Below are positions 37,575 to 64,000 of a stretch of 64,000 nt of DNA, one piece after another. Source of the DNA: a bacterium (GTDB lineage: Bacteria; Patescibacteriota; Patescibacteriia; JACPHY01). Under the pieces are notes generated by a model. The model had not been told where the DNA came from, searched no databases, and saw only the letters and a list, made by a program, of their open reading frames with translations. Numbering within the stretch: position 1 is the first letter of the stretch; each line of letters begins with the position of its first letter. The position numbers and the translations under genes are program-made. The stretch lies in contig JAUSKG010000022.1 of NCBI GenBank assembly GCA_030647005.1, positions 18,196 to 82,195 on the forward strand. The letters run 5' to 3'.

Positions 37575-38276
37575 TTACCGATTTTCCGATGATGCCGGTG
37601 CGCGCATGTAGGAGGTCATGGTACTCCCAGCGAGAGCGTGCGCAGCGAGTCCGGGAAGACGACTCACGAGAAACAACGCGTTACCAGCTGCGGAGGGAAA
37701 GCCGAGCGCGAGCGCGAGCGCCGCAAGGCATCCGTCCACATTCAGAGGGATACGACGACCCTTCGCCGTCGCGAGTGCCTCCGAGAGCGCACGAGCACGC
37801 TCCAAAGGAGGCCCTGCGATCCCGAGCGTCGAGGCGCGAATAAAAAGTGCGGTGGTCCGCGGGTCCTCCTCCGTATACACCTTATGCCCAAAACCGGGGA
37901 GACGTTCGTCTGCGGCGATGGCTGCATGCACAACCGCGACCGGATCGCCCGCGCGCGCTAACAACTCCATCGCCGCACTCACCGCGCACCCGTGCCGCGG
38001 CCCCATGGTGAGAATGCCGGCGGCGATCGCGGTGTGGAGCGCGTTCCCCGTCGAAGCCGAGACCCGCGCCGCCACGGTGGATGGTGGCTCCTCTCCGTGA
38101 TCGCACGCAGCGACGAGCATCGCATCGAGCATGGCGCGCTCGCGCTCAAGCGGCCGCGATCCGCGAAGGAGGAGAAACACCACATCCACGAACGATGCCT
38201 CGGCGATGAGGGACGCGAGCGGAACGCCGACAACGTCGGGTGCATGCTCATGATGCGTGGAATTCATAGTATGCAT
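37575..38276 (-). CDS. citrate synthase-family small protein (citryl-CoA lyase-like)
   Basis: GFGHKVYTEEDPR, the canonical citrate-synthase catalytic His motif. Only the ~230-aa small-domain form is present. First gene of the long minus-strand array. Confidence 0.55.
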   Translation of the reverse strand: MHTMNSTHHEHAPDVVGVPLASLIAEASFVDVVFLLLRGSRPLERERAMLDAMLVAACDHGEEPPSTVAARVSASTGNALHTAIAAGILTMGPRHGCAVSAAMELLARAGDPVAVVHAAIAADERLPGFGHKVYTEEDPRTTALFIRASTLGIAGPPLERARALSEALATAKGRRIPLNVDGCLAALALALGFPSAAGNALFLVSRLPGLAAHALAGSTMTSYMRAPASSENR

Positions 38277-38425
38277 ACCACTGCTCCGCGACGAACAGCG
38301 TGCATCTCTCCAAGCTCCTGAAGAGTGCCGCAACATCCGTATCCCCATCATTGCGAAACAACGAGAGCGTGTCCAATGAACGAAATGCAGCCCCCAGAAG
38401 AGGGGCTGCACGTACTCCACCAACG

Positions 38426-42400
<3,975 letters not shown>

Positions 42401-42442
42401 CACGTCCTCCGTCGTTCCGTTGTTCTGTTGTGAAGGAGCTCC

Positions 42443-42490
42443 TCTTCCCCGCTCAACCCCATGTTGCCATGGGGTTGAGCGGGGAAGAGG
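42443..42490 (-). terminator. perfect ~20-bp-stem hairpin between two minus-strand genes (candidate terminator/attenuator; no U-tract)
   Basis: TCTTCCCCGCTCAACCCCAT-gttgcc-ATGGGGTTGAGCGGGGAAGA, located between the stop of gene 42507..43475 and the start of the giant repeat protein. Confidence 0.35.
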
Positions 42491-42506
42491 CGCGTCGCAA
42501 CGCGCC

Positions 42507-43475
42507 TCATGGAGCAGCTCCACCGGTGTCCTCATCTTCCATGATGAGGAGGACGATCGCGGTGATCGCAACGCTCGCACCAACTCCCAAGAGGATGTTC
42601 GCTCGCACGCCGGCAGCTTCGCCCTGCTCCTTCGCCGCGACCGCCTCGAGCTGTGTCGCGGCAATCGAGAATCCCTCCTGCGCAGACACCGTCTCCCATC
42701 CCTGCCACGCGCCGAGTCCGATTCCCGCGAGTCCGAGCGCGACACCGGACCACTCGGCGATCACGAGGCCGTAGGATGGTTTCTCCGGCACGTCAAAGTC
42801 ACGGAATGGAGGTGTCAACGGTGCGCGCGAAGGGTCGGAATGATCCACGTCCGTTGCGGGTGGCGGATCGTCCTGACGAGATGGCGGGACAGTCATCACC
42901 GCATTGTTCGGCGGAGATGGGAGGTCCTCGACAGCAGGAACGATGTGCTCGTCCGACGCATCTGCTCCCTGCGTGCGCATCGTGCGAAAGAATTGCTCCG
43001 CCTGTCGCTTGAATTCCCGCGTGAGCACTCCCGCACCACCGGAAACCTCGAAGGTTGCTCGGTCGCTCACCGTCGAGCTCGCGACACGCACGCGGAACAG
43101 CGTCGCCTGGAACACCGTCACCTCCAGCCGATCAATGGAGACCATGACGATGGACTGCACGCGCAGCGTGCTGCCGATCTGCGCGAGGCACAGGATATCC
43201 ATTGCGCATCCTTGGACGGCAACGACTGGCGAGAAGCCGAGCAGGCGTTCCGCATCGGTGATGGAAACGATATCGCCAAGCTGTCCCTCAAGGTGCGCGG
43301 TTACGAGGAGGATAGACGAGAGCTCCTCCGCCGTCGCTCCGGCAATCGCACCGTTCGCTATGACTGGCACCACGAAGGTGCGCTCGCGGGGTTCTTTCGC
43401 CTCAGCACTGCCGATCACGCTCGTCATGAAGACGAGGGCGATTGTACGCGCACACCACGTTCGCAGAAACTGCAT
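42507..43475 (-). CDS. hypothetical secreted/membrane-anchored protein
   Basis: Start MQFLRTWCARTIALVFMTSVIGSAEA (signal peptide; GGAGGA SD). The C-terminus is hydrophobic (GVALGLAGIGLGAW…ITAIVLLIM). The upstream 65 aa in the ORF track are spurious. Confidence 0.45.
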   Translation of the reverse strand: MQFLRTWCARTIALVFMTSVIGSAEAKEPRERTFVVPVIANGAIAGATAEELSSILLVTAHLEGQLGDIVSITDAERLLGFSPVVAVQGCAMDILCLAQIGSTLRVQSIVMVSIDRLEVTVFQATLFRVRVASSTVSDRATFEVSGGAGVLTREFKRQAEQFFRTMRTQGADASDEHIVPAVEDLPSPPNNAVMTVPPSRQDDPPPATDVDHSDPSRAPLTPPFRDFDVPEKPSYGLVIAEWSGVALGLAGIGLGAWQGWETVSAQEGFSIAATQLEAVAAKEQGEAAGVRANILLGVGASVAITAIVLLIMEDEDTGGAAP

Positions 43476-45251: not shown

Positions 45252-46205
45252 TCAGGCATGCACGATCAACCCATCAGCGTGCACGCGCAAGCTGGGGGCA
45301 AGATGACGTGCATACGTGAGCTGATGCAGGAGGATGGGAATTTCTTCCAACCGATCAGCAATGCGTACACCGGCATCGGCGAACGCAGCGACTTTTGACC
45401 GATAACTCCCACAACCAGCCGCAACGATCGCTCCCGCGTGGCCGAGGGTCGTCCCGATCGGCAGGGTCTCCGTAAAACGTCCCGCAACGACGGCCACGAC
45501 CGGCTTCGTCCATACACCGGAAGCGAGATACGCTGCTGCAAGCTCCTCGTAGGCACCGCCGATCTCACCAAAGAGCACGACAGCATCCGTATCTTCATCA
45601 TCCCGAAATGCACGGAGCATGTCCACGAAATCCGATCCAATGAGCACGTCGCCACCGATACCGACGGCCGTCGAGATACCGAGGCCCGCTCGCCGAAGCG
45701 TGACGGCAATCTCTGCGGTCATGCCACCACTCTTGGAGAGCACCCCCGTACGCCCAGGCGTAAACACCTCCGCAATCTCCGATGAACCGATGGCACCCAC
45801 CTTGCCCTTCCCCGGTGAAATGATCCCGACCGAACTTGGACCAACGACGCGTACCTGTGCGATCCGCGATGCCGCGATGATGCGCGCGCTATCCGCAACT
45901 GGTACGTGCTCGGTCATAATGACGATGAGCGGAATGCCCGCCGCAATCGCCTCGATCGCGGCGGCGTAGACGTGCGATGCCGGAACCACAATGAGCGATG
46001 TCGTGATCGCAGGATGCACACGAAGTGCATCGATCACCGTGTCAAAAACCGGTACGCCGTGGACGCGCTCGCCCGCCTTGCCAGGCCGTACGCCTGCGAG
46101 CACCACGGTTCCGTACGCGAGCATCTCTTTCGTCGCTCGACTCCCCTCACTCCCCGTGATGCCTTGAACGAGCACGCGTGTGTGTTCATGCACGAGAATA
46201 GCCAT
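45252..46205 (-). CDS. sucD: succinyl-CoA synthetase alpha subunit (CoA-binding/ligase-CoA domains)
   Basis: VLVQGITGSEG, SKSGGMT and GHAGAI (phospho-His loop) motifs. Confidence 0.8.
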   Translation of the reverse strand: MAILVHEHTRVLVQGITGSEGSRATKEMLAYGTVVLAGVRPGKAGERVHGVPVFDTVIDALRVHPAITTSLIVVPASHVYAAAIEAIAAGIPLIVIMTEHVPVADSARIIAASRIAQVRVVGPSSVGIISPGKGKVGAIGSSEIAEVFTPGRTGVLSKSGGMTAEIAVTLRRAGLGISTAVGIGGDVLIGSDFVDMLRAFRDDEDTDAVVLFGEIGGAYEELAAAYLASGVWTKPVVAVVAGRFTETLPIGTTLGHAGAIVAAGCGSYRSKVAAFADAGVRIADRLEEIPILLHQLTYARHLAPSLRVHADGLIVHA

Positions 46206-46214
46206 ATCCTGCTC

Positions 46215-47282
46215 CTATTGGTACGCGAGCTTACACATGATACGCGCGCTCTCCTCCATGGGCGTGGCGGAATCAAACGTATACATCTGATACCCTTCAT
46301 GCGCCGCGGCATCCTGAAGCATGGCGAACGCCTCCGTCTTTCGCGGGCCATCGCGACGCACGACGATGGGATACGTCGGCCGTGGCAGTATCCTGCGTAA
46401 CCCATCGAGGAACCCCTGCATCGTTCCGAGGATATCGGTGAAATTCGCCGTCCCACCAATAACCCAGCACCCGCGCAGTCCTTCTTGTGCAAGGACACGT
46501 ATCGTGAGATCACGCACGACATCGGCGGATGGATTCCCGGAGTACTCAGCGTAATTCGCGGGGCGACCGCCGTGTGCCATGAGTGCATCAACGTTGAGGA
46601 GTGAAGCACCGCCGCCGGACGCGATGATGGCGATATCGCCACCCAGCGAAAGGAAGCGTCGCTCCTGCGGCCGCAGGATATCATCGTCAACGATCACCTT
46701 CGCATCGCCCGCGATACACCGTCCATCTGGTGTCATGAAGAGCGGATTGATCTCTGCGAGGAGCAGTCGCTCCTCGGTGAAACACGTCCAGAGCCGTGCG
46801 ATACACTCCGCGAGCACCGCACGGTGCGCCGTTGGCACACCCGCACGATCCATGACATCCGCGATCGCCGTCGGCGCAATGGGTGCATCTGCCGTAATCG
46901 GCACGATGGTCGCGGCCTCGATCGCAACGCCACCGCTGACGCTCATCGCGAGCACGGGACCACGGGTCCGCGTATCATAGCTCGCGCTCACGTAGTACTC
47001 ACGTTCCGCAGACACGAAGTCCTCAATGAGCACCCGCTCAGCGCGCATACCGGCAATGTCCGCTTCAACGCACCGCGCAAACGCAGGCAGGAACGATGCT
47101 ACATCCTGCGCTACCTGGACCCCACCGGCCCTGCCGCGGCCACCGCTGCGCACCTGTGCCTTCATCACCGCCGGATACCGCCGCGCGGCCGGCACTACGC
47201 CACGATCCACGAGCACCCCATCGGGCACCGCGATACCGTAGCGCTGCAGAAGCAGCTTTCCTTCATATTCCATGAGGTCCAT
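46215..47282 (-). CDS. sucC: succinyl-CoA synthetase beta subunit-like (ATP-grasp)
   Basis: MDLMEYEGKLLLQRYGIAVP...VMKAQVRSGGRGRAGGV ATP-grasp N-terminus; C-terminal ligase-CoA domain. Confidence 0.75.
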   Translation of the reverse strand: MDLMEYEGKLLLQRYGIAVPDGVLVDRGVVPAARRYPAVMKAQVRSGGRGRAGGVQVAQDVASFLPAFARCVEADIAGMRAERVLIEDFVSAEREYYVSASYDTRTRGPVLAMSVSGGVAIEAATIVPITADAPIAPTAIADVMDRAGVPTAHRAVLAECIARLWTCFTEERLLLAEINPLFMTPDGRCIAGDAKVIVDDDILRPQERRFLSLGGDIAIIASGGGASLLNVDALMAHGGRPANYAEYSGNPSADVVRDLTIRVLAQEGLRGCWVIGGTANFTDILGTMQGFLDGLRRILPRPTYPIVVRRDGPRKTEAFAMLQDAAAHEGYQMYTFDSATPMEESARIMCKLAYQ

Positions 47283-47929: not shown

Positions 47930-50497
47930 TTACTCCCTAATGAAATTCACGATCTTGTCCGGCACAAAAACAACGCGCACAGGATCGCGCTCCCCGAGGT
48001 GCTTGCGGACATTCGCCTCCCCGAGCGCACGCGCCCGCGCATCCTCCTCGCTCGTACCCGCAGGGACACGGATCGTCGCGCGGTGCTTGCCGTTCACCTG
48101 CACGACGAGGTTCACCTCCTCATCCACGATCAACGTGGGGTCATAGTGCGGCCAAGGGTGAGCAAGAACACTTTTTTTGTTCCCGAGCTTCTCCCACAGT
48201 TCCTCGGCGAGATGCGGCGCGAACGGCGCGAGGAGACGCAGAAAATCCGAGCGTATCGGTGAACCATCCGCAGCAAACTCTCGCGGATCGCGCGCAACCA
48301 AGTTCATGAATTCCATCATCGCGGCAATCGCCGTATTGAACCGCATTGCCTCAATATCCTCACTCACCTTCTTCATCGTCTTATGGAGTGCACGCTTCAA
48401 TGTTTTTTCTGACACTTCCTCAACGACGTGTTGAATTGGTCCGGTTGCATACGTCCAAACCTTTTCCAAAAACCGCCGACACCCCTTCAGCCCATCCGTG
48501 GACCACGGGACGGCCTGATCGAAAGGTCCAATGAACATCTCGTACAGACGCACGGCATCCGCGCCGTACTGCGCGATAATGTCGTCCGGATTCACAACGT
48601 TCCCACGCGACTTGGACATCTTCTCACCGTTTGCCGCCAAGATCATGCCGTGTGATGTGCGCTTCTGATACGGCTCCGCTACCGGCACAACGCCGATGTC
48701 GTGCAAAAACAGGTTCCAAAATCGCGAGTAGAGCAGGTGGAGCGTCGTGTGCTCCATGCCGCCGTTGTACCAGTCCACGGGGAGCCAGTGTTGCAGGAGC
48801 TCTTGGGACCATCGTCCCTGCCTGTCATTGCGAGGAGTCCGCGACGCGGCAATCCCGGTCAATGGAGTACGCGGAAACAACTCCCCATGCATCGCATACG
48901 CTAGGAAGTACCACGACGATCCCGCCCAGTTCGGCATGACATCGGTCTCACGTTTCGCCGGTCCACCGCACCGGGGACAATTGGTGTTCACGAACGAAGC
49001 AATATTCGCAAGCGGCGACTCCCCCGTATCCGTCGGCTCATACCGTTCCACCTCGGGCAACAAGATGGGGAGCTGATCCTCCGGTACAGGCACCGTCCCG
49101 CACGCCGCACAGAACACCACCGGAATGGGCTCACCCCAGTACCGCTGCCGCGAGAACACCCAATCGCGAAGCTTGTATGTCACGGTCATCGTGCCGCCGA
49201 CGGCTTCCGTAATCGCTGCGCGGGCCTCATCGCTGCGCATGCCGTCAAACGCTCCGCTGTTCGTGAGCAGGCCATCGCCGGTATAGACCTCTTCATTGGC
49301 CGGGATTGCCACGTCGCTCGCGGATTCACTCCTCGCAATGACCGTCGTGATATGCAACCCATACTTCTGTGCAAAACCAAAATCCCGCTCATCATGCGCG
49401 GGTACCGCCATAATGGCACCAGTGCCATAGGAACCGAGGACGTAGTCGGCGACCCAGACGGAAATCTCCTCGCCGTTCGCGGGGTTCACGGCGGTGATGC
49501 CGGCGGCAACACCGGTCTTCTCGCGCGCATCTGCGGCGCGGTCCATGTCGGTCACCTTTCGCGCGGCCGCGACGTACGCGCGCACGTCATCGGACGCTTG
49601 CCAACCGGCATCCATCCACCGCTGCGCGAGCTCGGGTGACACGACGAGGAACGTCGCACCAAAGAGCGTGTCCGGACGCGTCGTGAAGACGGAAATCACC
49701 ATGTCATTGCGAGGAGTCTGCGACGTGGCAATCCCGGCGTTTACTGTTGATGGCCAGGATTGCTTCGCCCCGACCAGAGCGCCGGGGCTCGCAATGACAG
49801 AAAACGTGATGTTCGCTCCCTCGGAACGCCCGATCCAGTTGCGCTGCTGCGCCTTCGCGGCTTCGATGTAGTCCACGTGGTGAAGACCATCCAAGAGCTG
49901 CTCGGCGTACGCGGTGATCTTGAGCATCCACTGTTCCTTCTCGCGCTTGTCCACGACGCCACCGCACCGCTCGCACCGTCCGCCGACGACCTCCTCGTTC
50001 GCCAAGCCAATCTTGCACGAGGGACACCAGTTGATCGGCACCCGCGCCTTGTACGCCAAGCCGCGCTCAAGGAGCTTGAGAAAAATCCACTGCGTCCACC
50101 GGTAGTACGCGGGGTCGGTCGTGTTCACCTCGCGCGACCAGTCAAAGGAAAAGCCGGCGGCCATGAGCTGCCGCTTGAAGTTCGCGATGTTCCGCTCGGT
50201 CGTCACGCGCGGGTGCTCACCGGTCTTGATCGCGTAGTTCTCCGCCGGAAGACCGAACGCATCCCACCCCATGGGGTAGAGGACGTTCTTCCCCTCCATC
50301 CGGTGCTTGCGCGCGATAACATCCATCGCCGTGTACGAGCGCAGATGCCCCACGTGGAGCCCGTCGCCGGACGGGTACGGAAACTCGACGAGGAGGTACT
50401 CCTCCTCGCCTCGTGCATCGTCGGCCGCGTGCGCGCGCTGCTCGTTCCACACGCGCTGCCACCGTTCCTCCATGGCTCCGTGATCGTATTTCGCCAT
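47930..50497 (-). CDS. leuS: leucine--tRNA ligase
   Basis: PYPSGDGLHVGHLRSYT (HIGH), KMSKSRGNVV (KMSKS) and the editing domain are present. Repeat-element insertions lie in-frame (see repeats). Confidence 0.95.
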   Translation of the reverse strand: MAKYDHGAMEERWQRVWNEQRAHAADDARGEEEYLLVEFPYPSGDGLHVGHLRSYTAMDVIARKHRMEGKNVLYPMGWDAFGLPAENYAIKTGEHPRVTTERNIANFKRQLMAAGFSFDWSREVNTTDPAYYRWTQWIFLKLLERGLAYKARVPINWCPSCKIGLANEEVVGGRCERCGGVVDKREKEQWMLKITAYAEQLLDGLHHVDYIEAAKAQQRNWIGRSEGANITFSVIASPGALVGAKQSWPSTVNAGIATSQTPRNDMVISVFTTRPDTLFGATFLVVSPELAQRWMDAGWQASDDVRAYVAAARKVTDMDRAADAREKTGVAAGITAVNPANGEEISVWVADYVLGSYGTGAIMAVPAHDERDFGFAQKYGLHITTVIARSESASDVAIPANEEVYTGDGLLTNSGAFDGMRSDEARAAITEAVGGTMTVTYKLRDWVFSRQRYWGEPIPVVFCAACGTVPVPEDQLPILLPEVERYEPTDTGESPLANIASFVNTNCPRCGGPAKRETDVMPNWAGSSWYFLAYAMHGELFPRTPLTGIAASRTPRNDRQGRWSQELLQHWLPVDWYNGGMEHTTLHLLYSRFWNLFLHDIGVVPVAEPYQKRTSHGMILAANGEKMSKSRGNVVNPDDIIAQYGADAVRLYEMFIGPFDQAVPWSTDGLKGCRRFLEKVWTYATGPIQHVVEEVSEKTLKRALHKTMKKVSEDIEAMRFNTAIAAMMEFMNLVARDPREFAADGSPIRSDFLRLLAPFAPHLAEELWEKLGNKKSVLAHPWPHYDPTLIVDEEVNLVVQVNGKHRATIRVPAGTSEEDARARALGEANVRKHLGERDPVRVVFVPDKIVNFIRE
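48824..48858. repeat. half-copy of GTCATTGCGAGG…GCAATCCCGG repeat, in-frame inside leuS
   Basis: gtcattgcgaggagtccgcgacgcggcaatcccgg. It is translated in LeuS as GIAASRTPRND. Confidence 0.6.
49703..49798. mobile_element. complete 96-bp palindromic miniature element with 11-bp terminal inverted repeats GTCATTGCGAG/CTCGCAATGAC, inserted in-frame in leuS
   Basis: gtcattgcgaggagtctgcgacgtggcaatcccggcg…ccaggattgcttcgcc…ggggctcgcaatgac. Length is 96 nt (32 codons) and encodes VIASPGALVGAKQSWPSTVNAGIATSQTPRND, absent from E. coli LeuS at this position. A nested GGCAATCC/GGATTGCC pairing lies inside. Confidence 0.7.
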
Positions 50498-51306: not shown

Positions 51307-52605
51307 TCATCCGTGTGCACGGTACGCACGATCAATCCGCTCGAGCGCGAGCGCATACGCGGCAATGCGGAGCGTGCGTGCGCCACGCGCGCGTGCAAAA
51401 ACCTCGCGCGTCTCGCGGCACAGCTTCGCGCTGAGCTTGCGGAGCACGTCGCGCTCGCTCCAGTGCTCGCCGTCCATGTTCTGCTTCCACTCGAAATACG
51501 ACGTCGCCACACCACCCGCGTTCGCGAGGACGTCTGGGATGACGGGAATGCCACGCTCCGTCAAAATCGCTTCCGCCTCCGGTGTGACGGGTCCGTTCGC
51601 GAGTTCGAGCACGACCTTCGCCTTGATCCGCCGCGCGTTCGCCGCGGTGATCGCGCCCTCGAGCGCAGCGGGGATGAGCACGTCGCACTCCTGCTCCAGG
51701 ATACTCGCATTCGTGACGACCTTCCCACCGCTCACCGCCGCGCAGTCCACCACGCTCCCACGTTCTCGCTTGCACGCCATGACGACCGCAGCACTCATCT
51801 CCTGGGCTTGCAGCTGTCGGCTTGCAGCTGTCGGCTTCCTCACAATGCCTCCCCGCGAATCCGAGAGTCCGACGACACGCATCCCCGCATCTTCCGCGCT
51901 CCGTGCAGCCCAGTACCCCACGTTGCCAAAACCCTGGACGACCACGGACGGGGACGCACCAACCCCCCACCGTCGCCCGCGCTGCCGAAGCGCCTCGCGC
52001 AGCACGACAATGCCACCGTACCCCGTCGCCTGTTCCCGCCCCGCGCTGCCGCCCATCGCTATCGGCTTGCCCGTGAACGTCGCGCGCCATTCCTTCGCGC
52101 TTGCGGCTTGCAGCTGTCGGCTTGTGACTCTTCGCCATTCATCCACCATCCACCCCATGATCGTCGCGTTCGTGTGCACGTCCGGCGCCGGAACATCCGT
52201 GCGCGGGCCGATGACCGGACCGAGCGCGCGCACGAACCCGCGGCTCAGCCGCTCGAGCTCGCCGCTCGACAGCAACGTGGAATCCACCGTCACGCCGCCC
52301 TTCCCACCGCCGAACGGGATGTTCACGACCGCGCACTTCATCGTCATCCAGAACGCGAGCGCGCGCACCTCGTCCATGTCCACGTTCGGGTGAAACCGTA
52401 TCCCACCCTTGTACGGCCCACGGAGCGACGAGTGCTGGACGCGGTACCCACGGAATAGACGCGTCGTCCCGTCATCCATCCGCACCGAAAACTGTACGTC
52501 AATCGTGCGCTCCGGCTCACGCAACCTTCCGAGGACATCCTCGCGCACCCGCACAACTGCGGCGGCCTGATCCAACTGCGCGAGTGCTGCGTGCCAGGGA
52601 GACAT
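51307..52605 (-). CDS. gdhA: NAD(P)-specific glutamate dehydrogenase
   Basis: GPYKGGIRFHP, FGGGKGGV, QGFGNVG and the Glu/Leu/Phe/Val DH fold are present. It contains two short in-frame repeat insertions. Confidence 0.9.
   Translation of the reverse strand: MSPWHAALAQLDQAAAVVRVREDVLGRLREPERTIDVQFSVRMDDGTTRLFRGYRVQHSSLRGPYKGGIRFHPNVDMDEVRALAFWMTMKCAVVNIPFGGGKGGVTVDSTLLSSGELERLSRGFVRALGPVIGPRTDVPAPDVHTNATIMGWMVDEWRRVTSRQLQAASAKEWRATFTGKPIAMGGSAGREQATGYGGIVVLREALRQRGRRWGVGASPSVVVQGFGNVGYWAARSAEDAGMRVVGLSDSRGGIVRKPTAASRQLQAQEMSAAVVMACKRERGSVVDCAAVSGGKVVTNASILEQECDVLIPAALEGAITAANARRIKAKVVLELANGPVTPEAEAILTERGIPVIPDVLANAGGVATSYFEWKQNMDGEHWSERDVLRKLSAKLCRETREVFARARGARTLRIAAYALALERIDRAYRAHG
51806..51837. 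repeat. GCTTGCAGCTGTCGG tandem repeat (x2) in-frame in gdhA
   Basis: gcttgcagctgtcggcttgcagctgtcggctt. It encodes …KPTAASRQLQA… on the gdhA strand. Confidence 0.55.
52098..52128. repeat. GCTTGC(G/A)GCTTGCAGCTGTCGGCTTG repeat in-frame in gdhA
   Basis: gcgcttgcggcttgcagctgtcggcttgtgac. It encodes …TSRQLQAASAKE…, about 9 aa more than E. coli GDH has between the conserved flanks. Confidence 0.55.
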
Positions 52606-52684: not shown

Positions 52685-53080
52685 ATGGAGGAACCCATCA
52701 CCAAATCATACTTCGACGAAAAGTTCGACGGCTTCACCCGAGCGGTGGACGAAAAGATCGGCGGCCTCGCTCGAACGATGGACGAAAAGATCGGCGGTCT
52801 TGCTCGAGCGATGGACGAACAGATCGGCGGCCTCGCCCGAGCGGTGAAGGAGGGATTTGATCGTGTTGATGAGCGATTTGATGCAGTGGATGAGCGATTC
52901 AACACGATAGAGGGTGACATCGCCGACCTCAAATACCGCATGCGTCTCATGGAGGGCGAAATCCAAGCACTGAGCGCGAACATGGTGACGAAGCAGTACC
53001 TCGATGCAAAAACGGCGCGTTGGCGCCGTCCTGAGGACGTCTTCGGCCGAAGGATCTCGTACGCGTCGTGTTCCCGTTGA
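52685..53080 (+). CDS. small coiled-coil protein with three tandem 11-aa repeats (A/T)(V/M)DEKIGGLAR
   Basis: MEEPITKSYFDEKFDGFTRAVDEKIGGLARTMDEKIGGLARAMDEQIGGLARAVKEGFDRVDERFDAVDERF…. The 33-nt DNA tandem repeats lie at ~52729–52838. It is the only plus-strand gene before 61.6 kb. Confidence 0.5.
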   Translation: MEEPITKSYFDEKFDGFTRAVDEKIGGLARTMDEKIGGLARAMDEQIGGLARAVKEGFDRVDERFDAVDERFNTIEGDIADLKYRMRLMEGEIQALSANMVTKQYLDAKTARWRRPEDVFGRRISYASCSR

Positions 53081-53225
53081 TGCGAACATCCTCTCACCGG
53101 AGACCCGGGCGAAACTCGAACAGCTCATCCCCGCAATCACCCTCAACGGGTGACCCGTCAACGCTCCGCACAAAGGAAAAGGCCCTGGACGCATATCGCG
53201 TCCAGGGCCTCGTGGTGCCACGCAC

Positions 53226-55898
53226 TCAGTTCTTCTGTCCCTCCGTTGCATCAACGATCGCTGCGATCTCCTGGAGCTCGCGCAGATTAACGACAGATGG
53301 GAGTGTCTCCGGTTGGAGCACTGCCCGTGCATCGGCGATGATCCGCTCGATGTCATCCGGCAGCGACCGACGGGAGTTCGCGGCGGCGACGGCGGCGAGC
53401 GTCATCTTGGCATCCTGCAGGCGATCCGCGGATGGCACCGCATCGGCAATCGCGTCGGCGAGCGACTGCGTGGTGATGGTCCCGCCACCAAACTGGTAGG
53501 CGCGACGGCAGCAGTTGAGGATGCCCGCACCGGAGAACCCGCGTGCGCGGACCTGCGCCACGAACGGCGTGAAGTCCGCAACCGTGCACGGGAACTGCTC
53601 GCGCGCAACGTACACCGGGAACAACCCCGAGTACTCCGCGTCGCCCGTGATGACGACGATACGCTCGTCCGCGCGACCGTCGCGCTTCATCGCGGGGTCC
53701 ATGAGGTCTGGCCGATTCGTCGCCTTGACGAACAGCACGCAACCGCGAATGCGCTCGTCCGCCTCGAACTCCATGAGCCGCTGACGGATGCGATTGGAGA
53801 CACCGGTGTCGCCCTGTGGCATATCGCGGCCGCTGTCCTCCTGGTCCGTCTCATCGCGGAAGACGATGCACGGTGCGAGGTCGAGGAGTGCCTGGCAGAC
53901 CTCCTCGACGCGCTGCTCGGAGTTCCCCACGAACATGCTCCGCAGGTTTCGGAACTTCACGAGGAGCATGTCGCACTCCCGCGCGAACGCCTCCGCGATC
54001 GCGGTCTTGCCCGTTCCCGGCGGGCCCATGAGGAGCACGCCCTGGGGTACGGCCTTCACGTCTCCGCTGCGCATCGCGTCTCGCGCAGCAATGAGCACGC
54101 GCTTGACGTGACCGAGGCCGGCGAGGCCGGCAAAGCCGTAGCGGGGCTCCACGATGGTGAGGAGATGCCCGTACGCACGGTGGAGAAGCGCGACGCGCCG
54201 TTCGGCAATCGTTGCCGCGTCGAGCGTTGGATCGCGGAGCAACGCGGCGATGTCGCGGTAGCTCATGCCCTGGGTGTGTCGCACGAAGGCGGAGATGCCC
54301 ATCTTCGGCGTGGAGAGCTGACCGCCGCTCTCTGCCGCCGCGAGCGCGGCATTCGCCTGCTCGTGTGTTGCGCGAGCAGCACGGATCTCCGGAGTATCCG
54401 GATGCTCCGCGCGCGCGGCGAGCGGCGCGATCTGCTGTGCGATGCGGTCGCGCTCACGCTCCCAACGGACGAGTGCATGGCCGTGCGCATGCTGCACGGC
54501 ATCCGTTGCCTTTCGGTACGCCTCCTGTGCCTTGCGCACTGCGCGGGGAACAACGTCTGCCTCGTCTGTGCACGCGCTGCGCTGCTCGGTGAGCGACCGC
54601 AGCTCATCCTCAAGCGCAAAACGTCGCTTCGGCACGCGGAGCACTGCGCGAAGTCCGTCCGGGAGCGGAAGCGGACTCGCATCGTAGAGGTCCGTGCTGA
54701 CGATGAAACCGTTCTGGTGCGTGTACAGCATCGCCGACAGCTCCGATGCCCCGCCGGGGAGCGTGAAACGATACACGCCACTGCGCTCGCGCTGCGCCAC
54801 GACGAACGTGTACACATGGAAGACCCCGCTCGCCTCTACGAACTCCACACGCACGCCATCACCCACACCGAGCTGCTTCCAAACCGTCGCGCTCATCGGT
54901 ACGCACGCGATGTCCGGAGCGGTGAGCGTGCGCTCGATCGTTGCGATTGCTGCGTCGAGTGTATGACGTCGCTGGTGCGCAACCGCGTTTTGCTTCCGCT
55001 CCGCCTCGTCGCGCTCCAATGTGGCGCGCTCACGCGCAGTCACGGCTTTCCGGTACGTCCGATCGTCGGCGAGGGTCCTCTCGCGCACTGCGTCGTGCGC
55101 GCGCCGCGCATCGTACAGCGGATCGAGCGTGACAAACACACGCTCGCGCTCCGCCTCCTCAAGCGCTGCGAGCGCCTCCGCAGCGGTATGCACCGCCGTG
55201 CGGAGATCAACCACACCTCCGCAGCACCGCCGAACGAACGCACAACGCTCCTCTTCCGTGGGTCTGCCGATGGCGATGGTCGTCAGCGGCCCATCCGGCC
55301 TGCGGAGAAGCTCATCCACGGATGCGGCAGTTGGCGCAGCGCACGCGATGAGGTGCCCGGCGCGCCGAAACCGATCCATGGACAACAGCTGGAGGAGCGC
55401 GAGTGCGGCGGCGCGACGCTCCGGCAGCGCGGCAGCGCCGGACTCGGCCGGCAGCACCACGTCAAGCGCGGGGAGGAGCGCGATGCACCGCTTTGGCGCG
55501 TCACTGCGTGCGGCGGATACGAAGACATCGCGCATGGCTAAGGTCGCGGAGAGCGGGCTGCGCGGGAGCGCGGCCGCATCGGCCGCGACGCGCTCCGCCG
55601 CTGCAGTCGCATCATTGGCTGGCGACGCACCGCCACCGCTCGCATCGAGCAGTGCCCGAAAACGCTCCTCATGGACATCGTGCGGGAATGTGAACCCGCG
55701 CGCCGCATCGTACACCCAGCAGAGCACGCTATCGTCATCCGCAGTGAGATGCGCGAAGAGCACTTCCTCGAACGCCGCGAGCGCGTCCACCGGCTGGTCT
55801 CCTGCATGGATGGGAAATCCATCCCCAATCCCGCCCGTGAACAGAAACGCGTGCACGCCACGCTGACGCGCTTCGTCCAACGCCTGAAGCCAGTGCAT
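53226..55898 (-). CDS. AAA+ ATPase with large N-terminal domain of unknown function
   Basis: GVLLMGPPGTGKTA (Walker A), CIVFRDETD (Walker B) and a classic AAA second region of homology. The ~550-aa N-terminal region is unassigned. Confidence 0.7.
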   Translation of the reverse strand: MHWLQALDEARQRGVHAFLFTGGIGDGFPIHAGDQPVDALAAFEEVLFAHLTADDDSVLCWVYDAARGFTFPHDVHEERFRALLDASGGGASPANDATAAAERVAADAAALPRSPLSATLAMRDVFVSAARSDAPKRCIALLPALDVVLPAESGAAALPERRAAALALLQLLSMDRFRRAGHLIACAAPTAASVDELLRRPDGPLTTIAIGRPTEEERCAFVRRCCGGVVDLRTAVHTAAEALAALEEAERERVFVTLDPLYDARRAHDAVRERTLADDRTYRKAVTARERATLERDEAERKQNAVAHQRRHTLDAAIATIERTLTAPDIACVPMSATVWKQLGVGDGVRVEFVEASGVFHVYTFVVAQRERSGVYRFTLPGGASELSAMLYTHQNGFIVSTDLYDASPLPLPDGLRAVLRVPKRRFALEDELRSLTEQRSACTDEADVVPRAVRKAQEAYRKATDAVQHAHGHALVRWERERDRIAQQIAPLAARAEHPDTPEIRAARATHEQANAALAAAESGGQLSTPKMGISAFVRHTQGMSYRDIAALLRDPTLDAATIAERRVALLHRAYGHLLTIVEPRYGFAGLAGLGHVKRVLIAARDAMRSGDVKAVPQGVLLMGPPGTGKTAIAEAFARECDMLLVKFRNLRSMFVGNSEQRVEEVCQALLDLAPCIVFRDETDQEDSGRDMPQGDTGVSNRIRQRLMEFEADERIRGCVLFVKATNRPDLMDPAMKRDGRADERIVVITGDAEYSGLFPVYVAREQFPCTVADFTPFVAQVRARGFSGAGILNCCRRAYQFGGGTITTQSLADAIADAVPSADRLQDAKMTLAAVAAANSRRSLPDDIERIIADARAVLQPETLPSVVNLRELQEIAAIVDATEGQKN

Positions 55899-56047
55899 GG
55901 CTCCTCCTCTCGTGAGTTGTCCAAAGAATCGTCGGGACATCCCGACGCTGCACCATAGCACTGGAGCGCGTAGCTGTCAAACAAACACACAAGAGAATCC
56001 CCCACCCTTCTGAAAGGATGGGGGATCAAAGTATCAAAGTACAAATC

Positions 56048-56812
56048 TCATGGTTTGACTGGGTCCGAGGCGCGCGAACCCCAGCCAACGGAGGAGGAAC
56101 CGAGATCGGCAGCATCCCACCCGCGCACGCACACGCGACCGGCGGCCCCGTCCGCGCGGAGAGCACCAGAGGCACGAGGGCCGAAGCGGGTGCGGAGCAA
56201 ACACCAGGTGGGAACATCGAACATGCGGTTGTGCTCGTGGCGGGTCGCGTGCCAGGAGAGGGTGTACTCCTCGAGGGAGGGCATACGGAATCCGGGCAGG
56301 GCGGTGAGGTCGTTCCAGGAGGTGCCGGTGCGTGGGCATGCGTCAGGGGTTTCCACCCATGACCAGCGGGGGAAGGCGACATCCTCCCATACGATCTGCG
56401 CGCGGTTGGGGTCTCCATCTTTTGCCGTCCAGTGATCGCGCTGCCCCACGGCTGCCATGAAGCGGTCGTAGGCGAGGGAGGGACTCGCCTTGCTCGTGTA
56501 CAGGGAGCTCGGTGTCTGGAGGATGAGCGTTTGCGGGGCGCGGTGCCTCGCGGGGTGCTCATCCGTGCAGAACGTGCCTGCGGTGCGTTGCTCGTACTCC
56601 TCGTCCGTGATGTTCGGGGGGAGAAGGTCTGCGAGCGCGCTCGCTGGCAGGAGGGCGAGGACTGGCGTTAGGTACTGCACCCACCAGTCCCTGCGGGCTT
56701 GTGCCATGGGACCGGCGCGGAGGCCGCGCATGTGCGCGACGGCGCGCGCGATCTCGCGGGCGATGGCCGGGTGCTTCGGATCGGTGTTGATCACCTGCTT
56801 CTGCGGGGGCAT
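56048..56812 (-). CDS. hypothetical protein
   Basis: Starts MPPQKQVINTDPKHPAIAREIARA and is preceded by AGGAGC. No family recognised. Confidence 0.4.
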   Translation of the reverse strand: MPPQKQVINTDPKHPAIAREIARAVAHMRGLRAGPMAQARRDWWVQYLTPVLALLPASALADLLPPNITDEEYEQRTAGTFCTDEHPARHRAPQTLILQTPSSLYTSKASPSLAYDRFMAAVGQRDHWTAKDGDPNRAQIVWEDVAFPRWSWVETPDACPRTGTSWNDLTALPGFRMPSLEEYTLSWHATRHEHNRMFDVPTWCLLRTRFGPRASGALRADGAAGRVCVRGWDAADLGSSSVGWGSRASDPVKP

Positions 56813-56922
56813 GGGGGAGCTCCTTTCGTGGGGGGTTGGTTGGTGAAGGAACAATGAGGCATCGGCCTCCCCGCCGCCTCGGAGCCGAAAGATGGCGCGC
56901 GGGAAGAGCGCGCCGCGGGGAA

Positions 56923-57540
56923 CTACAGCGTTGCGTCTGCAAGATCGAGCACCACACGAACGAGCTCGTAGTCCGTCACACCAGTAACGAGAGTACCGTC
57001 GGGTGCCACTACCACTTCGACTTCCGTGTGCAGGAACTCGTCCAGTGTGTGGCGGCCGGTGAGCAGATGCATGCGCTGGTTGCTCGAGCCACGGAGCGGA
57101 TCGCCTGCTGCGAGACGTTGGACGAACCGTCCGTCAATGAGCACGTCGAGTTGCTCCAGAAGTGCTTGGGCGCCAACTGGTGCATGCTCGCTGCGAAGCT
57201 CACGGAGTGTATAGCCCGACCACGCGAGCGTGGAGAGACCTCGCACTCGCGCATGGCGCGCGATCTCGACGAGTGCTGGTGCCTGCGCGAACGGATCACC
57301 ACCGGAGAAGGACACGCCGTCAATGCCGTGCTCTGCCTTCGCACGATCAATCCACGCACTGACCTGCGCGACGGTGTGCTGTTCCGACCCACGCCCGTCA
57401 CGCGCGAACGCTTGGAGCTCCGGCGTGGCGCACCCGCGACATCGAAACGGACAACCGCGCATCCAGAGGCACGCGCGCAACCCGGGCCCCATGGCGCGGG
57501 TTGCCTCTTGGAAGCGACCGACGGAGCAGAACGCACTCAT
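56923..57540 (-). CDS. small radical-SAM activating-enzyme-like protein (NrdG/QueE-like 4Fe-4S, CxxxCxxC)
   Basis: GLRACLWMRGCPFRCRGCATPE cluster motif; SFSGGDPF glycine-rich SAM-binding motif. About 205 aa. Confidence 0.6.
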   Translation of the reverse strand: MSAFCSVGRFQEATRAMGPGLRACLWMRGCPFRCRGCATPELQAFARDGRGSEQHTVAQVSAWIDRAKAEHGIDGVSFSGGDPFAQAPALVEIARHARVRGLSTLAWSGYTLRELRSEHAPVGAQALLEQLDVLIDGRFVQRLAAGDPLRGSSNQRMHLLTGRHTLDEFLHTEVEVVVAPDGTLVTGVTDYELVRVVLDLADATL

Positions 57541-57755
57541 GTGCCACCTCCGATCTTCACGCCGTGTCGCACACCGTTCGGCACCGCCGGCGGGTCCTCC
57601 ACGCGCTCGTCCGTGAGGCGAACGCCGCCGATCTCGAGTATCGCGCGGAGCAACGCTGCGGCATCATCGCACTCGGTGCTCCCATCCGGCATGTTGATGT
57701 CCACGCGCGTCGTTCCGTCGGGAAGCAATGTGACACGGATGACTTCGTCGCTCAT
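57537..57755 (-). CDS. small hypothetical protein (72 aa) ending VKIGGGT
   Basis: Start MSDEV, preceded by GGGAGGTGG. ATGA overlaps at both ends. Confidence 0.4.
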   Translation of the reverse strand: MSDEVIRVTLLPDGTTRVDINMPDGSTECDDAAALLRAILEIGGVRLTDERVEDPPAVPNGVRHGVKIGGGT

Positions 57756-58279
57756 ACGCCACCTCCCACCTTGACGGTGAAGCGCACCGAGCCGTCCGAT
57801 GCCTGCTCCTCCGTACTCGTTCCACGGAGGTATGCGCCGAGGATGCGCATCGCGCGCCGCACGAACGCGACGCGGTACGCCTCGCGCAGGCGATCTTCCA
57901 TCTCCGTGAGATCGCCCGCATGGTCTTTCGGAGCAACACCGTGGAGTTGCATCGTGCCGTTCTCCCGCTGCACGATGCCGAGCTGACGATCGCCGGAGAG
58001 CGTGAGGACACCGATGACATCGCCGACCGGCGGATGCCACTCCCCGCTCCAAAAGTCATGCGGACGCGAGAAGGTGGCGGCAGTCGCGCACCTGAGCTCC
58101 TCGGCGAGCTGATGCACGGCTTCTGCGGCTGCCTCACGCACAATATCGTTCCATGCAACGCGGTGCAGCAAACGGCCGACTGCCGGACGCTGTGCCGCGT
58201 ACTTCGCGATGATCTCCTGCAGTGAAGCCGACACACCGTCGAGCACGCGCTGGCGTGCAATGAAATGCAACGACATGCT
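57752..58279 (-). CDS. hypothetical protein (175 aa) ending VKVGGGV
   Basis: Start MSLHFIARQ, preceded by GGGAGGT. Confidence 0.4.
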   Translation of the reverse strand, partial: SMSLHFIARQRVLDGVSASLQEIIAKYAAQRPAVGRLLHRVAWNDIVREAAAEAVHQLAEELRCATAATFSRPHDFWSGEWHPPVGDVIGVLTLSGDRQLGIVQRENGTMQLHGVAPKDHAGDLTEMEDRLREAYRVAFVRRAMRILGAYLRGTSTEEQASDGSVRFTVKVGGGV

Positions 58280-58396
58280 ACCTCCCTTTCCGCTCAGTTC
58301 TCCAATGAACAACCGGGGGGACCCCCAGCCCTGCACCATACACAAAAAAAACGGGTGTGTCAAATAGCACTCGCCACCATCATACCGTGATGCTGC

Positions 58397-61841: not shown

Positions 61842-63374
61842 ATGAACGAGGCATTATTTATTCCTCTCATCGGCGGCATCGTACTCGTCGGTGTCGGCGC
61901 AGCCGGCGGCTATGCGTACCGGCACCTCGCCGCAACGCACCGCGCGCACGGCGCCGAGCAGAAAGCCGAGGCGATCATGGCGGAGGCAAAGCGCCGCGAG
62001 CGCGAGTTCCTCCTCAAAGCGAAGGACAAGGGGTTGAAGATCATTGACGACGCGAAGCGCGAGGAGACGGAGCGCCGGAAAGAACTCCAGCAGCTCCAGC
62101 AGCGTCTCGAGCAGCGCGAGACGAAGTTCGACGGCAAGCTCCTTGAACTCGAAGAGAAGCAGACGAAGCTCGACCAGGCCCGCGAGAAGCTCGTCGTGGC
62201 GAAGGATCGCCTCGAGGTGCTGCACGGTGAGGAGGAGCGCAAACTCGCGGAGATCGCCCAGCTCTCGCGCGCGGACGCGGAGCTGCGCCTCCTCGCAAAC
62301 GTGGAGACACAGGTCCAGGATTCGCTCATGAGCCGCGTGCGGAAGCTCGAGGCGATGAGCACGGAAGAGATTGAACGCAGGGCGCACATCGAGCTCGCGA
62401 GCGCGATGCAGCGCGTCGCATCGTCGCACTCCGTTGAGACCACGACGACCTCGGTGAAGCTCCCGTCCGATGACATGAAGGGGCGCATCATCGGCAAGGA
62501 GGGACGCAACATCAAGGCGATCGAGCACCTCACGGGGTGTGAGATTGTCGTGGATGAGACGCCGATGACGATCACCATTTCCGGCTTCTCACCCGTCCGG
62601 AGGCAGGTGGCACGTCGCGCACTCGAGGACCTCATCAAGGACGGCCGCATCCACCCCGCACGCGTGGAGGAAGCGGTTGCGACCGCGAAGAAGGACCTCG
62701 CGTCTGACATCAAAAAGGCGGGCGAGGACGCGCTCTACGAGCTCGGCATCGCGGGCGTTGACCCCAAGCTCGCGCAGATCCTCGGTCGGCTCAAGTACCG
62801 GACGAGCTACGGCCAGAACGTCCTCCACCACTCCATCGAGGTGGCGAACCTCGCCGGGCTCATGGCCGCGGAGCTCAAGCAGAACGTCCGCGAGGCGAAA
62901 CTCGGCGGGCTCATGCACGACATCGGCAAGGCCGTGGACCACGACATCCAGGGCACGCACATCGAGATCGGCTACAACATCCTCAAGAAGTTCAACATGC
63001 CGGAGGAGGTATGCTACGCGCCGATCGCCCACCATGAGGATAAGCCCACGACGGTGCTTGGCTGCATCATCAAGTCGGCGGATGCCATGTCCGGCGCGCG
63101 CCCGGGCGCGCGGAAGGACAGCTACGAGAACTACCTCAAGCGCCTCACGGAGCTTGAGAGCGTCGCGACCTCCTTCGAGGGTATCGAGCGCGCATACGCG
63201 ATCCAGGCAGGCCGCGAGATCCGCATCTTCATCTCGCCAAAAATCGCCGACGACTACCGCATGTACCAGCTCGCGAAGGACGTCGCGCAGAAGATCGAGC
63301 AGGAGCTCACGTACCCGGGCGAGATCAAGGTGACCGCCATCCGCGAGTCACGCGCGGTGGAGTACGCACGATAA
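61842..63374 (+). CDS. rny: ribonuclease Y
   Basis: N-terminal TM (IPLIGGIVLVGVGAAGGYAY), coiled coil, KH domain (IGKEGRNIKAIE) and HD domain (HHSIEVANLAG…MHDIGK). Start trimmed from ORF 61671. Confidence 0.9.
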   Translation: MNEALFIPLIGGIVLVGVGAAGGYAYRHLAATHRAHGAEQKAEAIMAEAKRREREFLLKAKDKGLKIIDDAKREETERRKELQQLQQRLEQRETKFDGKLLELEEKQTKLDQAREKLVVAKDRLEVLHGEEERKLAEIAQLSRADAELRLLANVETQVQDSLMSRVRKLEAMSTEEIERRAHIELASAMQRVASSHSVETTTTSVKLPSDDMKGRIIGKEGRNIKAIEHLTGCEIVVDETPMTITISGFSPVRRQVARRALEDLIKDGRIHPARVEEAVATAKKDLASDIKKAGEDALYELGIAGVDPKLAQILGRLKYRTSYGQNVLHHSIEVANLAGLMAAELKQNVREAKLGGLMHDIGKAVDHDIQGTHIEIGYNILKKFNMPEEVCYAPIAHHEDKPTTVLGCIIKSADAMSGARPGARKDSYENYLKRLTELESVATSFEGIERAYAIQAGREIRIFISPKIADDYRMYQLAKDVAQKIEQELTYPGEIKVTAIRESRAVEYAR

Positions 63375-63382
63375 ATACGTAA

Positions 63383-63462
63383 GCCGCAAGCTGACAGCCA
63401 ACAGCTGCAAGCTGGAAAACAAAACGAATATTTCTCTCTCACGCTTGCAGCTTGCAGCTAAC
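63383..63462. repeat. intergenic imperfect inverted repeat built from the GCTTGCAGCTG motif (same family as the gdhA insertions)
   Basis: agccgcaagctgacagccaacagctgcaagctgg …40 nt… cgcttgcagcttgcagcta, between the rny stop and the next start. Confidence 0.5.
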
Positions 63463-63464
63463 GT

Positions 63465-64000
63465 ATGCGTTTCCTCATCTTCGGTGATGTCGTCGCAAAG
63501 ATCGGCCGGCGGGCGCTCGCAGAGACGCTCCCGGAGCTCCGCGCGACCTACGCACCCGACCTCATCCTCGCGAACGTCGAGAACCTCGCGCACGGGCTCG
63601 GCATCACCGCGAGCACGATCCGCGAAGTGTTCACCGCGGGCGTGGATATCGCGACCGGCGGCAACCACATCTGGCGCAAGCCGGAGGGCGTGGAGCTCAT
63701 TCGCGCGGGGGAACTCCCCATCGTGCGACCGGCAAACTACCCCGAGGGGGCACCGGGCAAGGGGTGGTACGTCCGCTCGGTTGCGGGCACGGATGTGCTC
63801 GTGGTAAACTTGCTGGGACGGGTGTTCATGAATAACCTCGTGGACGATCCCTTCCGTACGTTCGATACCATTCTTGCGGAGCACCCCGCACCCATCGTCC
63901 TCGTGGACTTCCATGGCGAGACCACGTCGGAGCGCGGTGCGTTTGGCTGGTACGTTGATGGACGCGCGAGCGTCGTGTACGGCACGCACACGCATGTCCC
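63465..64000 (+). CDS. YmdB-like TIGR00282-family metallophosphoesterase (2',3'-cyclic-nucleotide phosphodiesterase), 3'-truncated
   Basis: MRFLIFGDVVAKIGRRAL…LILANVENLAHGLGIT…GGNHIW… The rny–ymdB gene order is conserved in Firmicutes and other lineages. It runs off the window end. Confidence 0.75.
   Translation, partial: MRFLIFGDVVAKIGRRALAETLPELRATYAPDLILANVENLAHGLGITASTIREVFTAGVDIATGGNHIWRKPEGVELIRAGELPIVRPANYPEGAPGKGWYVRSVAGTDVLVVNLLGRVFMNNLVDDPFRTFDTILAEHPAPIVLVDFHGETTSERGAFGWYVDGRASVVYGTHTHV

Follow-up and report, generated by a model that had tools for sequence, protein, structure and literature searches.

Repeats with a unit of seven nucleotides form a recognised, if poorly understood, class known from several bacterial lineages; the short tandemly repeated repetitive (STRR) heptamers, for example, occur in heterocystous cyanobacteria. 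Among repeats of other architectures, repetitive extragenic palindromes (REP) and bacterial interspersed mosaic elements (BIME) are hairpin repeats of short post-stop spacers within operons, with a species-specific sequence at orthologous spacers, and the tandem repeats that lie inside the open reading frames (ORFs) of Borgs have unit lengths divisible by three. Here, a heptanucleotide repeat is described from a 64,000-nt stretch (the window; contig JAUSKG010000022.1, positions 18,196 to 82,195) of an uncultured, Uhrbacteria-like bacterium of groundwater type from the candidate phyla radiation (CPR), in which it occupies two loops of the glutamate dehydrogenase (GDH) gene, gdh, and the spacer between rny and ymdB.

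In the genomes of many bacteria, no long simple sequence repeats (SSRs) are commoner than the heptanucleotides, and it has been proposed that the polymerase footprint favours their slippage (Mrazek et al., 2007, as summarised in PMC4679880 and PMC4692102). GGGAATC and GGGGAYT repeats occur in Xanthomonas and Nostoc; those of GGGAATC in Xanthomonas prefer four units, lie on the sense strand less than 50 bp from stop codons, and recur at the same intergenic positions of related species, where their length and sequence vary (PMC4692102). The same paper also cites the heptanucleotides of Calothrix (PMC4692102). TAACTGA repeats are found in Beggiatoaceae, Cyanobacteria and Bacteroidetes, patchily across phyla and “with no mechanism evident,” and within ORFs they are restricted to protein termini (PMC4679880). 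Repeats of different kinds also enter coding sequence: Rickettsia palindromic elements (RPEs) are found in spacers and in-frame in housekeeping genes unrelated to one another, where the protein fold can accommodate them (PMC10969869), and the Borg repeats are described as fast-evolving, perfect, and adding disordered regions to proteins (PMC9879509).

The arrays described below are probably, though by no means certainly, heptanucleotide microsatellites of the STRR, GGGAATC and TAACTGA class, which are tolerated in permissive loops of gdh, evolve in concert, and can form a hairpin in the spacer. They resemble the known heptameric SSRs in their head-to-tail 7-nt units, about four to five per array, near stop or start codons between co-oriented genes, in their presence at the same loci of relatives with variation in length and sequence, in the lack of a known mobilising enzyme, and in a patchy distribution across phyla. 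They differ in that the unit has a palindromic AGCT core followed by three variable bases, the units alternate, inverted pairs form long hairpins, the host belongs to the CPR and, above all, arrays lie in-frame within loops of conserved enzymes. The head-to-tail units, the excess of period 7 and the variation between relatives at the same locus that characterise heptameric SSRs are all found, and the location in spacers near gene ends is found for the rny-ymdB copy, with the gdh copies as the exception.

Heptad arrays in gdh and in the rny-ymdB spacer

The exact 15-mer GCTTGCAGCTGTCGG matches the forward strand of the window at 51806, 51820 and 52106, with a further copy carrying one mismatch at 63398-63412 on the reverse strand and partial copies at 63443 and 63450 on the forward strand. 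With up to three mismatches, 9 matches are found against 3.17 expected, and 9 were reached in none of 100 shuffles. The repeat reported in the initial annotation is therefore real and non-random, but its unit is not 15 nt long: it is a tandem array of the heptamer GCTKKYR (GCTTGCA, GCTGTCG and variants), in register at all four arrays, and the two copies counted at the first gdh site form a single array. A degenerate 14-mer comprising two units, GCTKKYRGCTKKYR, has 10 matches in the window (0.08 expected), every one of which falls in gdh site 1, gdh site 2 or the rny-ymdB spacer. Tandem Repeats Finder resolves 51805-51837 as a 14-nt unit repeated 2.4 times with 100% match, and assigns period 7 to 52099-52124 and 63443-63459. 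Because two units alternate, the window contains no strict period-7 array, and one period-14 array is counted against 0.0 expected. The same two heptad units are common to the three loci, all of which lie within 12 kb; the source genome is otherwise array-poor, the 64 kb of the window having the gdh and rny-ymdB arrays only. The features are as follows.

51307..52605, reverse strand: gdh, intact, 432 aa, with Pfam PF02812 and PF00208; product 100% identical to P0001
51806..51837, forward strand (antisense to gdh): gdh site 1 array, GCTTGCA GCTGTCG GCTTGCA GCTGTCG GCTT, coding for K257-A267 (KPTAASRQLQA)
52099..52126, forward strand (antisense to gdh): gdh site 2 array, GCTTGCG GCTTGCA GCTGTCG GCTTGTG, coding for T161-S169 (TSRQLQAAS)
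63382..63412, reverse strand: left arm of the hairpin, GCTTGCA GCTGTTG GCTGTCA GCTTGCG GCT, beginning 8 nt 3′ of the rny stop codon (63372-63374)
63443..63463, forward strand: right arm of the hairpin, GCTTGCA GCTTGCA GCTAACG, ending 2 nt 5′ of the ymdB ATG (63466)
63375..63466, forward strand: whole rny-ymdB spacer, 91 nt, folding as an imperfect stem of some 17 bp, the interior of which is AT-rich

The gdh product, a Glu/Leu/Phe/Val dehydrogenase, is identical to NCBI MDO8463236.1 (“MAG: bacterium”), and its nearest relatives belong to Candidatus Uhrbacteria and other Patescibacteria. The protein matches solved archaeal GDHs end to end, residues 2-430 aligning with PDB 1euz (E = 1.8e-111). 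Codon mapping, together with the exact matches above, places both arrays in-frame, so that the SRQLQA-type insertions of the initial annotation were correctly recognised; distant GDHs have neither array. In comparison with the Thermococcus and Pyrococcus structures, and with PDB 1euz, the window GDH is longer by 10 residues at site 1 and by 6 at site 2; the corresponding numbers in comparison with insert-free CPR homologs are 10 and 8. In an AlphaFold model built with 17 sequences (mean predicted local distance difference test, pLDDT, 92.3), the lowest 10-residue means are 70 (residues 161-170) and 61 (residues 261-270), at the two inserts, and no other loop of this otherwise confident model is of low confidence. 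The arrays occupy two putatively permissive surface loops, to which they add about 8-10 residues predicted to be disordered. In this respect the arrays are comparable to the Borg repeats, which are likewise perfect tandem repeats that give disordered protein segments (PMC9879509); unlike the Borg units, the unit here is 7 nt long, and one array makes use of three reading registers. The two gdh copies use different registers (PTAAS+RQLQA and TSRQLQAAS). In the sense of the mRNA, they are no more folded than shuffled sequences (z = +0.31 and +1.75).

The third copy does form a hairpin between rny and ymdB, as initially annotated. Its two arms are separated by 30 AT-rich bases, and the spacer folds with a minimum free energy of -32.9 kcal/mol (z = -3.75), equalled by 2 of 200 shuffles. 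The stem starts just past the rny stop codon and, on its 3′ side, extends as far as base one of the ymdB start codon. A scan of 63000-64000 gave no U-tract terminator and no sigma-70 promoter match, and what follows the stem is this start codon rather than the U-tract of an intrinsic (Rho-independent) terminator. The hairpin is inferred most likely to act as a REP-like, or terminator-like but U-tract-less, 3′-end structure within the rny-ymdB operon; a role as a stabiliser is also conceivable. The resemblance to REP and BIME lies in a hairpin repeat that follows a stop codon within an operon. Unlike REP, the arrays are heptad-periodic and also occur inside ORFs, they contain no GTAG-type consensus, and no REP-associated tyrosine transposase (RAYT) was seen in the 40 scanned ORFs of the window, none of which gave a match to Y1_Tnp. 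Among syntenic relatives, rny and ymdB are only a few bases apart in L003, and are separated by 64 nt in L047, a locus in which no array was detected. The rny-ymdB spacer of L050 (4520-4650, reverse strand) holds a different and far stronger hairpin composed of CGCGGAUC-type repeats (-66.7 kcal/mol, z = -6.7); thus, this spacer has gained hairpin repeats independently in different lineages.

Orthologous loops and neighbouring genes in related genomes

A motif confined to these three places, together with orthologs free of DNA repetitiveness, would have told against the initial annotation, and half of this was observed: within the window the motif is limited to three places, but the orthologs of gdh do show DNA repetitiveness. 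Among nine GDH relatives with 62-73% protein identity, an insert is present at site 2 in all nine and at site 1 in most. The DNA of seven of them (P0002-P0007 and P0009, 65-73% protein identity to the window GDH) was compared, the sites being read on the antisense strand; the genomes of P0002 and P0006 are GCA_030646955.1 and GCA_030698325.1, and that of P0007 is from JGI 3300039234. The inserts are mostly heptad arrays of four to five units, the unit sequences of which are lineage-specific.

P0005: site 1, GCTTGAA GCTTGCA GCTGTCG GCTTGCG GCTTCCA; site 2, GCTTGAT TCTTGGT GCTTGCT
P0006: site 1, (TCTGGAA)x4, equivalent to (TGGAATC)n; site 2, (TTTTGCR)x4
P0007: site 1, (GCTTGAG GCGTGAG)x2, equivalent to (GCKTGAG)n; site 2, (CTGCTAT)x5
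P0009: site 1, ACTATCG ACTATCG GCTGTCG GCTATCG GCTTTCG; site 2, AGCTCGT AGCTTAC AGCTCGT
P0003: site 1, no array; site 2, degenerate units, length as in the window
P0004: site 1, 7 inserted residues that show no clear heptad array; site 2, degenerate units, length as in the window
P0002: site 1, no array, with a GGCTTGCG remnant of two units; site 2, the other repeat family of the window (…GATTGCCGCGTCGAGGACTTCTCGCAATGAC…, coding for IAASRTSRND)

Insert lengths vary between relatives from +2 to +10 aa, and equal lengths recur: P0005, P0006, P0007 and P0009 agree at site 1, and the window, P0003, P0004 and P0006 do so at site 2. A rule by which the inserts would be multiples of 21 nt was considered and dropped, as it holds for some only; the gdh inserts measure 21-30 nt, and an insert in a leucyl-tRNA synthetase (LeuRS) gene described below measures 105 nt. 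The site 1 array is missing in P0002, which retains the remnant, and in P0003 and P0010, and the site 2 insert is present in the whole clade. The GDH tree contains the groups (P1,(P2,P3)), (P6,(P7,P5)), (P9,P10) and (P4,P8). In a codon alignment, the arrays of P0005 and P0007 have a nucleotide identity of about 69%, against 76% for the whole gene. A perfect 14-nt duplication is present in the gdh arrays of both the window and P0007, and recent homogenisation is therefore indicated in both. The sharing of positions, combined with units that are homogeneous within each lineage and peculiar to it, points to microsatellite concerted evolution and turnover, and not to two recent transpositions into the gdh of the window.

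The initial annotation had suggested an active miniature-element system. Such an element, similar to the RPEs or a “nano” version of a miniature inverted-repeat transposable element, would have jumped twice into gdh and once into the rny-ymdB spacer and would still be active. It would account for units shared by three loci within 12 kb, and the absence of the site 1 array from P0002, P0003 and P0010 resembles empty sites. RPEs provide a precedent for in-frame insertion into housekeeping genes (PMC10969869), and the outcome is alike in that a short repeat occurs both in a spacer and in-frame in a housekeeping gene. The anatomy is not alike: RPEs are palindromes of about 100-150 bp with a conserved family sequence and peptide, whereas the gdh copies are tandem heptads of 28-32 nt with no ends, and their orthologous copies differ in unit sequence. 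More precisely, each gdh copy is a direct array, of 28 nt in one case and 32 nt in the other, and the first and last units of the two differ, inverted arms being present in the spacer copy only. The gdh copies show neither terminal inverted repeats nor ends in common, no duplicated flank was found at any of the three window loci, and no transposase, RAYT, integrase or reverse-transcriptase domain was found at E <= 1e-5 in 40 of the 48 candidate ORFs of the window. Furthermore, copy length and unit composition vary, the positions of the inserts are common to proteins of 62-73% identity, which does not suit fresh insertions, and the two-unit remnant in P0002 suggests contraction instead of an empty site. 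A mobile element is an improbable source of these arrays, and they can be called active solely in the sense of ongoing homogenisation, not in that of transposition.

The peptide AASRQLQA is found at site 1 of both the window GDH and P0005, which might suggest that an SRQLQA-type sequence is a selected, functional loop of the enzyme and that the repetition of the DNA is a by-product. The same DNA, however, occurs in a non-coding spacer, and the two gdh copies are translated in different registers. In addition, the sister lineages of P0005 carry unrelated peptides of equal length (DSRFQIPDS and SSRLKPHAS), and model confidence is low in both inserts. Selection for the peptide is thus hardly credible as the origin of the arrays. 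The window and P0005 use the same codon at six of the eight residues of AASRQLQA, but this is not by itself proof of constraint at the level of DNA, the background of shared codons at identical residues being 55%.

Since the unit length is not divisible by three and perfect tandem copies are prone to slippage, the arrays could also be contingency loci, in which the gain or loss of one unit switches gdh off or on. Phase-variable heptanucleotide repeats have a precedent in Haemophilus (PMC8262952). However, all of the ten closest gdh sequences are intact, the arrays have four to five units and are heterogeneous in the window, and arrays of the same kind lie in LeuRS and thioredoxin reductase (trxB) genes, which are essential and cannot be switched off. 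Phase variation is very improbable on these grounds.

The arrays in LeuRS and trxB come from two loci that are syntenic with the window, L049 (the P0006 genome) and L050 (the P0007 genome), in which tandem periods were compared with triplet-block shuffles. L049 contains four period-7 arrays (0.0 in shuffles) and L050 contains seven (0.15 in shuffles); any period from 8 to 15 is represented by at most one array, so that 7 is the sole enriched tandem period of at least 7 nt. These arrays lie mostly inside the housekeeping genes gdh, which holds two in each locus, trxB and LeuRS, in which four were counted.

L049 8434-8466 and 8891-8925: two trxB arrays, in-frame
L050 13629-13709, 13932-13967 and 13080-13101: LeuRS arrays, in-frame

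In the L050 LeuRS, (GGAGAGT)x5 and (TGTCAAC)x5 together form an insert of 35 residues (105 nt) that is missing in the window and in L003. The gdh site 1 unit of L049, (GATTCCA)n, recurs in the second trxB loop 1.2 kb away, and the LeuRS unit (CCGAAAT)n of L050 recurs in an array at 16235-16270, 2.3 kb away, which parallels the three same-unit loci within 12 kb of the window. Otherwise the units vary from one array to the next, and L050 contains at least six different heptad units within 16 kb.

The initial annotation had also recognised another repeat family in-frame in the window, and this observation holds. GATTGCCRCGTCGCRGACTCCTCGCAATGACA is a palindrome-like 32-mer, unrelated to the heptad repeat, with the following copies.

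48823-48854 and 49702-49733, reverse strand: two in-frame copies in LeuRS, coding for GIATSQTPRNDM and GIAASRTPRNDR
49332 and 49788: partial copies
16952/17066: inverted pair in a spacer

The first of the LeuRS insertions is common to the LeuRS of L050 (VIASEAKQS…IATS…APRND). A near-identical copy of this family fills gdh site 2 of the closest relative, P0002 (L047); thus, the same loops take two unrelated types of repeat.

Genome-specific units at orthologous sites, which recur at other loci of the same genome, might also be explained by a trans-acting, genome-specific factor, similar to the REP/RAYT system or to uptake sequences, that re-seeds permissive sites with its own heptad. The form of the intergenic copies, which are post-stop hairpins as in REP and BIME, would agree with such a factor, as would the occupation of P0002 site 2 by the other family, if loops are re-colonised by whichever repeat is present. 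On the other hand, the coexistence of unrelated units in L050 is not explained by a single recognition factor, no candidate enzyme is encoded in the scanned ORFs of the window, and the AGCT arrays lack the GTAG signature of REP. We regard a trans-acting factor as doubtful, and continue to favour concerted evolution of microsatellites.

Heptad arrays outside the clade and other features of the window

A scan of one genome per species with the 21-mer GCTTGCAGCTGTYRGCTKKYR returned 43 loci, none of which is from the source species. About 14 of them are coincidental matches within one conserved Pseudomonas gene (GCTTGCAGCTGTTGGCTTTCA; L004, L005, L011, L017, L019, L029, L030, L032, L035, L039-L041, L043 and L044) that are not heptad arrays and serve as a caution for similar motif scans, and a few further loci lie inside unrelated genes. 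The remaining loci, about 20, are tandem AGCTNNN arrays of Acidobacteriota, Gemmatimonadota, Chloroflexota, Kiritimatiellia, Desulfobacterium, another Uhrbacterium (L007), other Patescibacteria and two gammaproteobacterial metagenome-assembled genomes (MAGs). Most of these arrays are intergenic. About 14 of about 35 follow a stop codon at a distance of 0-13 nt, and several others stop 3-9 nt short of a start codon. Pairs in inverted orientation are frequent and fold as heptad-periodic hairpins.

L010 2915-3053: hairpin-forming array pair, -82.3 kcal/mol, z = -8.9
L034 1723-1790: hairpin-forming array pair, z = -7.9
L036 3230-3366: hairpin-forming array pair, z = -5.3
L028 4028-4139: hairpin-forming array pair, z = -3.7
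L007 5478-5565, in the other Uhrbacterium: hairpin-forming array pair, z = -2.8
L014 4612-4730: array locus near a stop codon

The rny-ymdB element of the window is a small member of this inverted-pair type, of which the gdh copies resemble single arms. Post-stop-codon hairpin repeats of the AGCTNNN type may represent an undescribed class that extends across phyla. At the gathering threshold, Rfam families have no match in the window and a single tRNA match across 15 array-bearing loci. A literature search with the exact heptad strings found no paper in the library searched, and one on repeats in CPR coding sequences found nothing relevant. The heptad pattern has no match in viral contigs, and six-frame translations of the array gave nothing usable against a set of 5.8 billion proteins, the single match having E = 8. 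In JGI metagenomes, a specific 19-mer has 10 matches, none from the source species, of which nine lie in unrelated genes. This rarity, together with the lack of viral matches, also speaks against a mobile element.

The tenth metagenome match (L056 1321-1339) is again an array that was found in the gammaproteobacterial MAG L006 (4444-4474). Its 31 nt, CTTGAAGCTTGCAGCTGTCGGCTTGCGGCTT, match the site 1 array in the gdh of P0005 (L001 1659-1689) without a difference, and in L006 the array sits inside or beside a tiny ORF. The identity is a point that a mobile element would explain; it could equally be due to chance convergence of heptads, to transfer or to mis-binning.

Several other features of the window were recorded. 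The gene trxB adjoins gdh in the syntenic loci L003 and L047, and in the window the two are separated by about 5.7 kb (52685-58363), which may be an inserted island and contains the following.

52685-53080, forward strand: small ORF with no Pfam match, coding for DEKIGGLARAM-type repeats; at 52715-52899 it contains a 33-nt tandem repeat (x3.9) and a 21-nt repeat (x2.4)
53226-55961: AAA ATPase, 911 aa
56048-56854 and 57752-58363: two ORFs with no Pfam match
56923-57540: radical-SAM/Fer4_12 protein

Elsewhere, genes at 37575-38423, 45252-46205 and 46215-47282 encode citrate-synthase C-terminal, CoA-ligase, and ATP-citrate-lyase citrate-binding/ATP-grasp domains; they look like an ATP-citrate-lyase or citryl-CoA-type set, which is seemingly unusual for a small CPR genome. 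Many putative metal-binding motifs of the MopE type (PF11617, E = 3.5e-73) are found in a protein of 1439 aa (38426-42745, reverse strand), which has a homolog in the syntenic L003.

Proposed turnover of the arrays and its possible consequences

In the most likely model, the usual habitat of arrays with an AGCT or GGCT core is the short spacer just past a stop codon, where two inverted arrays would give rise to a hairpin of RNA or single-stranded DNA, the rny-ymdB copy being of this type. The gdh copies would be single arms that came to lie in two permissive surface loops without significant mRNA structure. The arrays would be old at these positions, the ancestor of the Uhrbacteria-like clade having already carried them at both loops, and each lineage would then have re-homogenised its own, giving genome-specific units at orthologous positions, with the possibility that the same unit recurs nearby. 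Homogenisation might proceed by slipped-strand mispairing within an array and, probably, by template switching or gene conversion between nearby arrays, and selection would pass only those states that are free of stop codons and have a total length that is a multiple of three.

Some observations weigh against this interpretation. The gain of a single 7-nt unit in an essential ORF is a frameshift, and the sizes of the inserts (+21, 24, 27 and 30 nt) do not follow simple multiples of 21, so that the model does not account in detail for the in-frame dynamics. The census of copies covers 64 kb of the source genome. Finally, three loci share two units, and the window and P0005 share AASRQLQA though they belong to different GDH subclades. 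Such sharing is not predicted by pure drift in situ, and some transfer between loci or repeated re-seeding is therefore needed.

It is also tempting to speculate, more tentatively, that an undescribed heptad-repeat system capable of renewing itself is present in the Uhrbacteria-like CPR, and perhaps also in Acidobacteria and further phyla, that it occupies post-stop hairpins and, in these small genomes, permissive loops of essential enzymes as well, and in which orthologous arrays are overwritten by the unit of each genome via local template switching or a heptad-specific enzyme. If such a system exists, a non-triplet repeat would continually rewrite protein loops while the frame is kept.

In practical terms, the arrays are strain-level markers and, in alignments of CPR proteins, give rise to misleading “lineage-specific insertions.” If the pattern proves to be genome-wide, it shows that a repeat with a unit length not divisible by three is able to persist, and to turn over, in essential genes such as those for GDH, LeuRS and thioredoxin reductase. 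The arrays would then provide a natural system for the question of how heptameric repeats arise and spread, which was left open by the work on TAACTGA, GGGAATC and STRR repeats, and they would supply new disordered surface loops to the very small proteomes of the CPR.

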